Assembly (NCBI GenBank): GCA_964016885.1
Contig: OZ024765.1
Coordinates: 16,740,001 to 16,804,000 of the forward strand
Direction of reading: 5' to 3'
DNA: 64,000 bases
Source: Eledone cirrhosa
Taxonomy: Eukaryota
Shown in pieces: positions 7,926 to 59,842 of this stretch; positions within the stretch are counted from its first letter, which is position 1, and the number at the start of each line of letters is the position of its first letter. Under the pieces are notes generated by a model. That model worked only from the letters and a program-made list of their open reading frames with translations, was not told the DNA's origin and searched no databases. Made by a program: the position numbers and the translations under genes.

Positions 7926-7939
7926 AATAATAATAATAA

Positions 7940-8098
7940 TTGATTCATTTGCAAGCAAACAGCCTCATTATAATATGTTTTATAGATGACCATTGTCATC
8001 TTTTTGTTCTAGCAATGACAGTCACTGCTAGAACAAAATGGAGGTGATGGTCATCTGAAAAACAGCATAATGAGGCTGATTTCTTACAAATGAATCAA
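7940..8098. repeat. Imperfect 159-bp palindrome flanked by (TAA)n/(ATT)n
   Basis: ttgattcatttg...cagcctcattat...ttgttctagcaatgac|a|gtcactgctagaacaa...ataatgaggctg...caaatgaatcaa. Confidence 0.85.
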
Positions 8099-8116
8099 AT
8101 ATTATTATTGCTAACA

Positions 8117-15394: not shown

Positions 15395-15570
15395 TATAGA
15401 ATTGAGTTGGTAAAAACCAGTTATACCATTACTCATCAGTGTACTCGATATTTGGTGTAGTAGAATGGGTTATATGAAAAATTCTGGACCCTCACAGCTG
15501 AGCTCCTGCCATATCAATAGCTATTGATACAGCAGGAGATCACCTGTCGGGGTCCAGAATTTTTCTTATA
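15395..15570 (-). mobile_element. Diverged 'palindrome + tail' element (same family as 42324 and 59446)
   Basis: Palindrome 15471-15570 centred on aatagctatt. The minus-strand tail acccattctactacaccaaatatcgagtacactgatgagtaatggt matches accccactctactaccctaagtattgagtactctggtgcgttatggt. Confidence 0.7.
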
Positions 15571-15624: not shown

Positions 15625-15798
15625 ATAAATGTCATCTGAGTTTTTCGAATATTGATGATAATCGATTTGTTTGCAATTATGCCAACAGCCTCTTTAAACC
15701 CATGTCCATAGAATGACCTGGGCATTCTTTCTCTTGTGTTGGCATGCAACCGAATCGAATATTATTATTAATATTCGAAAAACTCAGATTACATTTAT
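15625..15798. repeat. Inverted repeat with spacer
   Basis: ataaatgtcatctgagtttttcgaatattga...tgccaaca / tgttggca...ttaatattcgaaaaactcagattacatttat. Confidence 0.8.
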
Positions 15799-17308: not shown

Positions 17309-17495
17309 AATCAATGTTGCGACGAATGGAATTTATTGGACATATTACAATCGTTTCTCTGGCGACCAGCTTGAGGCACGATCGATTTGATGATCGAACC
17401 CGACTCTGAAAATCGCAAGGTCCTCAAATACGTCTTGATCGCCAGAGACACGATTGTAATATGTCCAATAAATTCCATTCGTCGCAACACTGATT
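17309..17495. repeat. Inverted repeat, ~57-bp arms
   Basis: aatcaatgttgcgacgaatggaatttattggacatattacaatcgtttctctggcga / tcgccagagacacgattgtaatatgtccaataaattccattcgtcgcaacactgatt. Confidence 0.92.
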
Positions 17496-17870: not shown

Positions 17871-18163
17871 ATATAATTGAAAAAGTGGAGAATAACATGG
17901 TCAACAGTACAAGAAAGAGGATTTATTTGCAGTCTAACAATTGTTTCACTGATAGAGTTGTCTAAAAATTGCTGAACACTAAAAACAGTGCCACTCAATT
18001 TTAAATACGATGTTAACTCTACTAGATCATCAAAATTGAGTGGCACTGCATTTAGTGTTCAGCATTTTTAGACAACTCTATCAGTGAAACAATTGTTAGA
18101 CTGCAAATAAATCCCCTTTTTTTGTACTGTTGACCATGTTATTCTCCACTTTTTCAATTATAT
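17871..18163. repeat. Long inverted repeat, ~132-bp arms and ~29-bp loop
   Basis: Arms 17871-18002 and 18032-18163 are near-perfect reverse complements. Confidence 0.95.
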
Positions 18164-37545: not shown

Positions 37546-37621
<76 letters not shown>

Positions 37622-37629
37622 TAAAATAA

Positions 37630-37703
37630 CAGATTAAAGTTTAAGCAAAGAATCGCTGCTTTCACCCTTAACGGGATCTTCTGAAACTAACAAAGTCAAT
37701 CTG
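37630..37703 (-). ncRNA. Type I hammerhead with extended stem I, U4A core variant
   Basis: cagattga[ctttgtt]agttt CAGAAGA tccc[gttaa]gggt GAAA gcag[cgattct]ttgc TT aaact ttaatctg. Confidence 0.6.
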
Positions 37704-37952
37704 TAAACGCAGAAGTGGATATTTCAAAAAACATTGCAACCTGAGGAAGACAGGAAGACGATACTTAGGTTCATGGAAACGTTCCCTGGCAAAGAACGGG
37801 AAAAAACGAATATAAACGTCATTATAGTCTAGTTTCAGAACTTTAATCTGTTATTTTAATAAATATTTGCTCTACGGTTCTTATATATTTGATATATATT
37901 TATCCTTATCGAGCCCTCCTTGGATTTTAGTCTTCAAATTTATTATTATTAC

Positions 37953-37986
<34 letters not shown>

Positions 37987-38070
37987 CATATATATATACA
38001 TATATATATATACATACTTATATACATATATATATATACATATATACATACATATATATATATACATACT

Positions 38071-38183
<113 letters not shown>

Positions 38184-38257
38184 ACATATATATATATACA
38201 TATATATATATACATATATATATATACATACTTATATATACATACATATATATACAT

Positions 38258-38391
<134 letters not shown>

Positions 38392-38481
38392 CATTTGAAG
38401 ACAATAAATCCAAAGAGGGCTCGATAAGGATAAATATATATCAAATATATAAGAACCGTAGAGCAAATATTATTAAAATAA

Positions 38482-38555
38482 CAGATTAAAGTTTAAGCAA
38501 AGAATCGCTGCTTTCACCCTTAACGGGATCTTCTGAAACTAACAAAGTCAATTTG
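38482..38555 (-). ncRNA. Second copy of the U4A hammerhead
   Basis: Same fold as 37630-37703. Confidence 0.6.
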
Positions 38556-42191: not shown

Positions 42192-42323
42192 CATATTCAT
42201 GAACATAAATATAATATATTTCTGTTCTCTTCCTGATTCAACAGTTTTTCCTTTTCCCTTTCCACACCTACGGATATTGCTATATACACACGTATGTGTG
42301 TGTATATATATATATATATATAC

Positions 42324-42550
42324 ATAGGAACGAGTAGGACCCCAACGGCTGAGCTCAAGCCGTTTCGACGGCTAATTCTGGACTAAAATCATTCGGACTA
42401 AAAACATTTTAGTCCAGAATTAGCCGTCGAAACGGCTTGAGCTCAGCCGTCGGGGTCCTACTCGTTCCTATTACCCACTCTACTACCCTAAGTATTGAGT
42501 ACTTTGGTGCGTTATGGTCCACCTGGTTCCTTGCCACATTCCCTTCGTTA
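42324..42550 (+). mobile_element. 'Palindrome + tail' element carrying a hammerhead 3' half
   Basis: Near-perfect IR 42324-42471. The right arm has GAAA cggct[tgagctc]agccg TC gggg. The ~80-bp tail is shared with 59760-59842, 40701-40740, 15395-15470 and loosely 26988-27065. Confidence 0.85.
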
Positions 42551-42626
42551 TATATACATATATATATCATCATCGTTTAGTGTCCATTTTCCATGCTAGC
42601 ATGGGTATATACCACCACCATCATCA

Positions 42627-43800
42627 TCATCATCGTTTAACGTCTATCTTCCACGCTAGCATGGGTTAGACGGGAATTGTCTCACTTGAGGCAAGATTGG
42701 TCAGATGACCGTGTCTCGCTCATATAGGCCTATCTGGCAGGTTTTCTACAGATGGATGCCCTTCCTAACACCAACCACATTTACAGTGTGGTTTGGGAGC
42801 CTTTTTACCGTGTCACCTACACCAGTGCTACTCAAAGTGGTGGTCCGCGGACCGGTGCCAGTACGCGGCCAGTGTCCAGCCCATGCTAAGGAAGCATTTG
42901 AGGAATTTTTTTAATTACTTTTTTATATGTTTTGATATTGTATTATTTGTTTACTAAATAAATAGAAGATTAAAAAAATTGTCAACTATTATTATATTCA
43001 TTCTATATATATCGTATTATTATAGATTGGCAGTATCGGTAGAGGGTCGGACACCATGCTTTCCAGCATAGTTACGTCTCTTTACGATCTGAGTTCAAAT
43101 CCCGCCGAGGTTGCCTTTGCCTTTCATCCTTACGGGGTCGATAAAATAAAGTACCAGTAATGCACTGGTTAATTGCTGGCCTTGTGCCTAAAGTAGAAAC
43201 AATTATATATATATATATATATATATATATCGTAGGCGGTGAATTGGCAGTATCAGGAGAGGGTTGGACGCCATGCTTTCTAGCACAGTTACGTCCCTTT
43301 ACAGTCTGAGTTCAAATCCCGCCGAGGTTAACTTTGCCTTTCATCCTTACGGGGTCGATAAAATAAAGTACCAGTAATGCACTGGGTAATTGCTGGCCTT
43401 GTGCCAAATAGTAGAAACAATTATATATATATCGTTTCCGGTATAAATTAATATTTGTTTCTACTTTAGGCACAAGGCCAGCAATAACCCAGTGCATTAC
43501 TGGTACTTTATTTTATCGACCCCGTAGGATGAAAGGCAAAGTCAACCTCGGCGGGATTTGAACTCAGATCGTAAAGGGACGTAACTATGCTGGAAAGCAT
43601 GGCGTCCGACCCTCTACCGATACTGCCAAATTAATATTAATATTAACAAGAAATATTAGCGGGACGTGGCACATTGAAAAAAGAAAATGCCGGTCCGCCA
43701 CATCAGATAGTTTGAGAAGCACTGACCTACACGACTACTCTACAGTGTGGACTGGGAGCTTTTTGTTGTGACACCTACACAACCTCTTTAGTTTGGACTG
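42627..43800 (-). mobile_element. SINE/RTE 3' module interrupted by a hAT MITE
   Basis: catcatcgtttaacgtctatcttccacgctagcatgggttagacg...gatgcccttcctaacaccaacc, which resumes after 43732. Confidence 0.8.
42823..43724. mobile_element. hAT (Charlie/Buster-type) MITE with three nested family A SINEs
   Basis: TIRs cagtgctactcaaa / tttgagaagcactg. Exact 8-bp TSD acctacac (42815-22 and 43725-32) with central TA. SINEs at about 43026-43205(+), 43233-43422(+) and 43455-43629(-). Confidence 0.92.
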
Positions 43801-45704: not shown

Positions 45705-45920
45705 GTTAATTTATCTGGCAATCAATGTTTAGCATTGATTGACCAACAGTTAAAAATATAGATATAAATATAGATAGTCTGTCAAAGTTCTTTCATCACA
45801 CACATGTGACATTATCAGTCGTACTATTATGTTTCCTCCCGGAAATAAATATATATATTTATATCTAGATTTTTAACCGCTGGTCAATCAATGATAAACA
45901 TTGATTCCCAGATAAATTAA
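45705..45920. repeat. Inverted repeat, ~65-bp arms
   Basis: ttaatttatctggcaatcaatgtttagcattgattgaccaacagttaaaaatatagatataaatata / tatatttatatctagatttttaaccgctggtcaatcaatgataaacattgattcccagataaattaa. Confidence 0.9.
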
Positions 45921-58249: not shown

Positions 58250-58404
58250 ATAATACAAAGAGGGCTCGATAAAGATTGTATATATATTAAAGTTTATATA
58301 AACCCATAGTGCAAATATTTATTGTTAGTACAGATTAAAGTTTAAGCAAAGAATTTCTGCTTTCACCCTATATGTGTAGGGTAAAAGTAGAATTTCTTTG
58401 CTTA
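58250..58404 (-). mobile_element. Third copy of the 37612 family, ending in a foldback palindrome (58343-58404)
   Basis: caaagagggctcgataa...cagattaaagtttaagcaaagaatttctgctttcacccta|tatgtg|tagggtaaaagtagaatttctttgctta. Confidence 0.8.
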
Positions 58405-59398: not shown

Positions 59399-59445
<47 letters not shown>

Positions 59446-59447
<2 letters not shown>

Positions 59448-59842
59448 GGTAAAAGTATAACCCCAACGGCAGAGCTCAAGCCGTTTCGACAGCTATTTCT
59501 GGACTAAATTAGAATTTTTAGCCTGGTAAATAAATAGCCGAACTTGTCAAGGGGTACTTCCTTATATGGGAAGATTGTAGTTGTCAAGAGGATTGGTCAA
59601 AATTTGTTGCAAACACAAATAAGTCTATCGTGGCATATGGTCAGAGGTAGGGGTGGCTGAACTTGCCTGTAGAACAATGAGGGAGTGAGTGGAGCCTGTC
59701 AAGCGTTGAAAGTGAAATCTATACAATCTTGCGCTCTGCCGTCGGGTCATACTTTTCCTATTACCCCACTCTACTACCCTAAGTATTGAGTACTCTGGTG
59801 CGTTATGGTCCATCTGGTTCCTTACCACAATTCCTTCATTAT
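59446..59842. mobile_element. 'Palindrome + tail' family element with inverted halves
   Basis: Left arm taggtaaaagtataaccccaacggcagagctcaag pairs with cttgcgctctgccgtcgggtcatacttttccta, followed by the family tail. Confidence 0.8.
59455..59557 (-). ncRNA. Type I hammerhead with U3-A8 core variant
   Basis: gtacccc TTGACAA g-tt-cggctattt...aaatagctg-t-c GAAA cggc[ttgagctct]gccg TT ggggttatac. Confidence 0.62.

Follow-up and report, generated by a model that had tools for sequence, protein, structure and literature searches.

Positions 42324-42550 of the window (the whole 64-kb stretch of DNA analysed, to which coordinates refer) contain a near-perfect inverted repeat, with 67 bases paired about a best axis at 42397.5; its two 65-bp arms (42324-42388 and 42407-42471) differ by a single mismatch, at a CpG. 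An 18-nt spacer separates the arms, a 79-nt unpaired tail extends to 42550, and (TA)n tracts flank both sides. Element positions are given as + or - distances from the predicted ribozyme cut at 42451/42452, with the long copy L151 as reference.

Inspection of both arms bore out the original prediction that the locus holds two inverted hammerhead 3' halves without the 5' half of the core, each arm having GAAA, a 6-7 bp stem III, GUC/GUU and GGGG. Aligned with a natural read-through copy, both arms terminate at -44, i.e. on the 3' side of the apical loop of the long stem II, and the proposed location of the axis within stem II is thus correct for the geometry of this copy; the spacer, however, is a near-repeat of the left arm's own end rather than native loop II, as judged from read-through copies. 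The parts of the insertion are as follows.

42304..42323, no strand assigned: (TA)n target, left flank, from the sequence.
42324..42388, minus strand: short arm, +20 to -44, plus one extra base; its outer end is the TAT site joined to (TA)n, a junction with 9,188 exact genome matches.
42389..42406, no strand assigned: junction insert of 18 nt, a repeat of the left-arm end, from comparison with read-through copies.
42407..42550, plus strand: long arm, -44 to +99, sense strand of the element RNA; its +99 junction has 21,929 exact genome matches.
42407..42411, plus strand: putative RNA start zone, with A(-41) at 42411 and a second likely start at -45, from the family-wide wall of arm ends and the extra G that precedes it in other copies.
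42429..42456, plus strand: hammerhead 3' half (GAAA, stem III, GUC, 3' strand of stem I) with the predicted cut at 42451/42452, from the sequence, the fold of the subfamily-b copy L204 and the second wall at +1.
42472..42550, plus strand: 79-nt tail between the priming sites +20 and +99, from mapped copies; tandem copies continue into the 5' UTR and ORF.
42551..42565, no strand assigned: (TA)n target, right flank, from the sequence.

Identity and abundance of the element

The palindrome is a short insertion, in (TA)n, of a young Hydra-clade Penelope-like element (PLE; family 1), an assignment that rests on motifs described in the available part of PMC8557442. In frameshifted copies, a YRDDG RT motif and a downstream VIY..YIG endonuclease domain lie in the same ORF, as in EN+ PLEs, together with the Hydra-clade motifs SDKTG, RWR, CNCPDGSIC (CxCx5C), CNLC and CKH; CCHH is absent, and Pfam gave no match for the family 1 ORF pieces. 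The +99 end continues into the 5' UTR and ORF in 18 of 30 ORF-start loci, with ~90 nt from the +99 end to the ATG, as in partial tandems with a pseudo-LTR (pLTR); the palindrome sequence thus corresponds to the pLTR plus the front of the message. Inverted 5'-truncated copies with a tail (79 nt) are present, 81 of 91 +20 arms having a nearby partner arm.

By comparison with the Hydra clade as described in the same partial source (PMC8557442), family 1 shares the RW-R/K, DKT, CxCx5C linker, CxxC and CxH motifs, a C-terminal GIY-YIG-like domain without CCHH, (TA)n targets, and the inverted 5'-truncated copy plus tail. It differs in that the unit is ~3.5 kb, as opposed to generally <3 kb, the tail is 79 rather than 30-40 nt, the hammerhead core is YUGANAA instead of canonical, and insertions number tens of thousands, mostly of 140-210 bp.

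The +20 junction has 9,188 exact genome matches, the +99 junction 21,929 and family 2 36,847, whereas reversed-pattern controls gave none, so the junction matches do not reflect chance. Within an insertion, the two arms diverge by a mean of 3% (96 pairs). Family 2, present at 58343, is a second Hydra-like PLE, with an endonuclease 49% identical to that of family 1; its endonuclease frames are near-intact and 97-98% alike (L281, L305, L308; window region 37579-38520), indicating that this family is young too. Copies of families 1 and 2 also share the same (TA)n tracts as nested PLE clusters (L012, L024, L078, L080). A PIF1-like helicase frame (L152:118-615, Pfam E 2e-48), probably a Helitron piece, lies beside one PLE copy.

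Two other identities were considered. The possibility, raised in the original prediction, that the inverted repeats are TIRs of a DNA transposon or MITE was rejected, since the centre differs in every copy and the arms continue into an RT element. A non-LTR retrozyme was likewise rejected, the short copies being head-to-head with only the hammerhead 3' half, not tandem head-to-tail whole motifs.

Ends of the arms

The distributions of arm ends derive from 91 arms mapped from the first 90 +20 matches listed (of 9,188) and 84 arms from the first 100 +99 matches listed (of 21,929), 16 of the latter being duplicates or unrecovered. Thirty loci of the first genome search, which favoured -47 to +99 coverage, were excluded from these distributions, but are in the base tallies, which took in all loci, including 30 that were tail-anchored. 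Tallies of rows refer to the first 100 places in genome order, with palindromic loci contributing two rows.

At their outer ends the arms begin at +20 or +99, in both cases after TAT, and abut (TA)n. With a few mutated rows left aside, 162 arms run into (TA)n after +20 and 149 show the native continuation, the corresponding values after +99 being 189 into (TA)n and 9 continuing into the 5' UTR. An ORF-long copy (L155) ends at +20 in (TA)n, and both +20/+20 and +99/+99 arm pairs occur, implying that +20 is a priming site in its own right; in L204 its position is immediately 3' of the extended stem I. In vitro, an anole PLE uses two internal priming sites that bound the tail, and both target strands (PMC11167929, available part); +20 and +99 correspond to these two sites. 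According to the same part of that study, the element, Poseidon PAc of Anolis carolinensis, shares with family 1 two tail-bounding RT start sites downstream of the hammerhead, AT-rich targets, extension of both strands and uncut RNA as the main template. By contrast, the PAc start site is not homologous to the target, whereas both sites here end in TAT; further, that part of the study reports no RNA ends at the cut and does not address the positions of cDNA ends, whereas here walls are present at the likely cap and cut.

The inner ends form a sharp wall. Among the matches listed, 79 of the 91 arms that reach -39 stop between there and -46 (+20 arms, 49/57; +99 arms, 30/34), compared with 27/118 that stop in the 8 nt before and 3/12 in the 44 nt beyond -46; 12 of all 175 mapped arms read through. 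The axes are thus far from random, as had been anticipated, but the predicted peak at stem II is found only in part. For family 1 it falls at loop II, on its 3' side, i.e. in apical stem II, whereas in family 2 (38 arms) 10 of 22 truncated arms end from -41 to -50, 3 at -29 and none from -51 to -84, which places the wall upstream of the core, on stem I's 5' strand. The distance from the cut is similar in the two families (-41/-45 and -46).

An extra, non-genomic G precedes A(-41), where the element base is T (C in one variant), in 44 of 65 rows listed, as counted by eye with 35 rows of the C-variant or ambiguous class set aside, compared with 16/100 one base downstream (p 2e-11, among the matches listed). 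The extra G is present in 24 of 41 rows in which the partner arm cannot supply the base, and a scripted tally of all loci gave G in 20/38 cases at the wall and 27/161 elsewhere. In family 2, G precedes A(-46) in 52 of 77 junction rows listed (by eye, with 23 read-through variants set aside). Contigs from 3/3 short-read runs of one other sample have single-G joints before the position of 42411. Several loci have the extra base on each arm and a single nucleotide separating the two. At -45 this test for cap copying gives an ambiguous reading, since a base at the centre is C or G depending on the strand.

Both walls (-41 and +1) fall on a pyrimidine-A step, and the putative start sites are similar to the initiator consensus of flies; inspection by eye showed no clear TATA or DPE motif. 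In L1, an untemplated 5' G has been read as cap copying at a pyrimidine/purine initiator (PMC9341517, available part), and initiator-driven pLTR promoters have been described for Penelope (PMC2377424, PMC3846280, available parts). From the sequence evidence we infer that transcription of a capped RNA starts inside loop II, at the main wall (-41, likely also -45), in which case the capped RNA would have only the ribozyme 3' half at its front. Alternatively, the RT could stall and add an untemplated C, which would give the extra base. Arms ending at -42 to -44 may reflect -41 plus an added A, from which they are not distinguishable. As a separate observation, the stretch of loop II just upstream of the putative start is unusually variable among read-through copies, for which homopolymer slippage and template-transfer scars are alternative explanations.

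A second, minor wall is present at the predicted cut. Exact +1 starts are estimated at ~780 arms and those at -6 at ~57, a ~14-fold difference, by extrapolation from counts by eye (~50/100 rows of 1,555 matches being junctions for +1 and ~12/100 rows of 471 for the -6 control). Tiny palindromes with both arms ending at +1 exist. This wall is characterized by A-tailing, the preceding base being T in 28, A in 16 and G in 6 of 50 rows (by eye, among the matches listed); the extra G is thus specific to the upstream wall. Subfamily b contributes 22 of 39 +1-ending loci, compared with 26/90 overall (p 0.005), and differs in the 3-8 core, with U3-A8 in 5/5 copies; subfamily a, the commonest, has U3-A8 in 6/31 and a C3-A8 mismatch in 24/31. 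The MFE fold of the subfamily-b copy L204 is a three-helix hammerhead junction with GAAA and NUH, whereas the subfamily-a copy L151 folds otherwise, not as a hammerhead (z -0.9); Rfam gave no hammerhead match on a full copy. The +1 wall may be the end left by ribozyme cleavage in vivo, though a pause at the foot of stem III could also produce it; the C3-A8 mismatch of the commonest subfamily, the fold of L151, the degenerate core of family 2 and the negative Rfam result count against this reading.

The U3-A8 core is a described variant of PLE hammerheads (PMC4209133, available part), with which the present motif shares its type I form within the pLTR, a long helix II and motif pairs on opposite strands. 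Unlike those hammerheads, as far as that part describes them, the motif here has a full stem III and, in the commonest subfamily, C3-A8; the same source reports that evidence for cleavage in vivo is absent. The family 2 core, CAGAAGA, is degenerate and its stem II is without a G-C closing pair; this ribozyme may be dead but kept as a structure.

Origin of the palindromes

The best explanation, for which we estimate a probability of about three in four, is that the 42324 palindrome is a head-to-head insertion of a Hydra-clade PLE, the centre of which likely marks the template RNA's 5' end, and that it arose by twin priming, run-off and end joining. The element's enzyme would cut both target strands, and each target end would prime one cDNA at an internal site on the sense RNA, +20 or +99, both ending in TAT. 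Each cDNA would be copied to the front end of the RNA, mostly capped and sometimes ribozyme-cut, would gain C or A and then be trimmed, with host end joining fusing the two cDNA ends head to head; ribozyme structure would set the axis only via the cut site. Both cDNAs would derive from one RNA copied twice or from a pair of RNAs that are in the same state. Among 27 loci that have one arm ending at +1 and a visible partner, the partner does not pass upstream of the cut in 22 (by eye), and this sharing of end class makes one RNA copied twice, or two RNAs together, likely. PAc has been predicted to be a dimer (PMC11167929, available part).

Some features of long copies are not fully explained in this way. 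Of 18 ORF-linked 5' pLTRs, none stops at -41 to -45, 7 end between +27 and -27 and 11 pass -100, implying that long insertions use other templates or jump; they may be primed in the message's 3' repeat, be copied from read-through or circular RNA, or result from transfer.

In L1 twin priming the element RNA is primed from two target ends, each cDNA copies a different part of it, and microhomology joins the inversion. Unlike in L1, both cDNAs here would copy the same stretch to the same end, thus giving a palindrome. The extra G, at what would here be a capped 5' end, is shared with L1 (PMC9341517, available part).

The original prediction explained the palindromes differently, by a single cDNA that snaps back at stem II and self-primes. 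In a wider form of this model the cDNA could instead fold onto its 3' end, the second arm would be copied from the first, and central deletions after insertion would account for the asymmetry. Self-priming has been proposed before for PLE palindromes (PMC3846280, available part). The apical stem II axis of family 1 would be in accord with it, and subfamily-matched arms (90/90 typed pairs), correlated arm ends (rho 0.38) and near-symmetric junctions (41/81 within 4 nt) are compatible with fold-back as well as with two cDNAs. However, fold-back on the stem II hairpin requires native loop or 5' stem II sequence, which is kept in 1 of 81 paired junctions; snap-back there is therefore not supported. 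The +20 arm is at least 5 nt longer upstream than its partner in 25/81 paired copies (the reverse in 15/81), with an excess of hundreds of bases in some over the +99 arm, from which snap-back would have it copied. Junctions in which both arms carry the extra base about a 1-nt centre cannot come from a hairpin with a loop of at least 3 nt. The existence of solo and double +20 arms, and the stem I wall of family 2, also argue against snap-back, which we consider improbable. Two of the 81 copies (L063 and L109) are joined across the native stem III hairpin, with an 18-19 nt overlap, and it may be that fold-back accounts for a minority of copies, with stem III, not stem II, as its site; some of the asymmetry could also stem from central deletions after insertion. 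Rare variants (5 on both arms and 159 on a single arm) say little, most having arisen after insertion.

The 81 junctions themselves comprise 32 with microhomology, 9 blunt and 40 with inserts, several of the inserts being A/T runs or arm repeats, and trimmed ends are evident. Two copies, L004 and L135, have inserts of ~45-50 nt, that in L004 being the reverse complement of the left genomic flank. The L004 insert is a templated insertion of the type typical of polymerase-theta-like joining.

The other loci cited in the original prediction, two (15471-15570 and 58343-58404) as having the same stem II geometry and one (59455) as a complete relative, have the following features.

15415..15570, no strand assigned: head-to-head insertion of a related family, 72-74% identical to family 1, tail leftward; inverted repeat at 15471-15570, axis near -29.
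58343..58404, no strand assigned: an older variant of PLE family 2, inserted head to head, with a right arm truncated at ~+1; axis at loop II in this copy.
59445..59685, minus strand: older-subfamily copy, read-through arm from +20 to about -221; whole hammerhead-like motif at ~59460-59555, core UUGACAA (U3-A8 type).
59728..59841, plus strand: partner arm of the 59445 insertion, -16 to +99, from arm mapping.

The repeat at 15471-15570 is real, but its family is a relative of family 1 (72-74% alike) rather than the same; its axis lies at a short self-complementary site in the proximal strand of stem II, and its GAAA has decayed. That at 58343-58404 is, as described, real and of a different family, with its axis at loop II (-30), though the arms of this family end mostly at -41 to -50, in stem I. 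The "complete relative" at 59455 does have a full hammerhead-like motif, on the minus strand, but this locus, too, is an inverted insertion, and its arms, of very different length, reach to about -221 and to -16, a counter-example to stem II snap-back.

Other repeats of the window may be noted. A 295-bp head-to-head palindrome in (TA)n at 17871-18163 has GAAA, a palindromic stem III and GUU near 18087-18098, with its axis ~80 nt upstream of this GAAA/GUU site; it is possibly a third PLE family with the axis again away from a short stem II. Older inverted repeats (67-81%; 7929-8109, 17309-17495, 45706-45920, 15625-15798 and 1389-1634), several with AT-rich flanks, are likely decayed insertions of other families. 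A SINE-like repeat pair at 43244-43629, arranged tail-to-tail around a short AT stretch and 90% complementary, is the source of the top, spurious, Rfam miRNA match; an Rfam search of the window returned only microsatellite-driven miRNA matches.

Rather than running off an RNA end, the RT might stall ~41-46 nt upstream of the cut on a longer RNA, where this is folded or bound by protein, and add an untemplated C, the cDNAs again being joined head to head. The similar distance of the wall from the cut in both families, the location of +20 just 3' of the extended stem I in L204, and the 12/175 arms that pass the wall fit such a stall, but the structural context of the wall differs (loop II and a stem I strand, respectively), the extra G is present at the upstream wall and not at +1, and both walls are on a pyrimidine-A step; on balance a stall appears unlikely, though less so than snap-back. 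Much the least probable explanation, to the point of being highly implausible, is that the palindromes are fold-back products of assembly or library preparation, or MITE-like elements with TIRs. Palindromes are a known class of artefact, and no examined short-read contig spans the whole 42324 copy, a gap that in itself proves nothing. However, the 3% mean difference between arms (96 pairs), the fixed TAT ends, the continuity with an RT-endonuclease ORF and the recurrence of head-to-head joints in independent short-read contigs all argue that the copies are genuine insertions of a retroelement. Twin priming with run-off at an RNA end is thus the preferred explanation.

Relation to other elements and implications

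The literature already describes inverted copies that bear tails, the use of two priming sites, hammerheads of PLEs and the self-priming proposal. The inverted pLTRs of Adineta vaga Penelope, as described in the available part of PMC3846280, share with family 1 head-to-head palindromes at inverted junctions, a tail and initiator-like pLTR motifs; those palindromes were explained by self-priming on an antisense template, whereas the present data favour two cDNAs of sense RNA. The origin of PLE inverted ends and hammerhead cutting in vivo are stated as open in the available parts of PMC8557442, PMC4209133 and PMC11167929, and the available part of bioRxiv 10.64898/2026.07.22.740005 does not treat inversion. 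A literature search that covered main texts of mostly open-access papers revealed no paper linking the PLE inversion axis to a capped start or ribozyme cut, and none showing use of the PLE ribozyme cut in vivo.

A more speculative proposal, possible but distinctly less likely than its alternatives taken together, is that PLE transcription starts inside the ribozyme, that the short cDNAs are the equivalent of strong-stop DNA, and that the palindromes are failed transfers. The front of the capped RNA would then hold the ribozyme 3' half, with the whole motif confined to the opposite end, and the short cDNAs would normally jump to the cut 3' end via a 41-46 nt repeat, so building the pLTR. Pairing of the two ends of the RNA could also form a split hammerhead, removing the capped leader and giving the +1 class.

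Overall, the original prediction was largely right in its observation, i.e. PLE insertions with non-random axes, and mostly wrong in its mechanism, snap-back at stem II. The tens of thousands of young insertions amount to a fossil 5' RACE of PLE RNA ends, pointing to transcription from a cap site within the ribozyme, to another template end, at the cut, that tracks the integrity of the core, and to two cDNAs per insertion. The exact end positions are testable, and the twin priming explanation would account for an abundant class of genomic palindromes.
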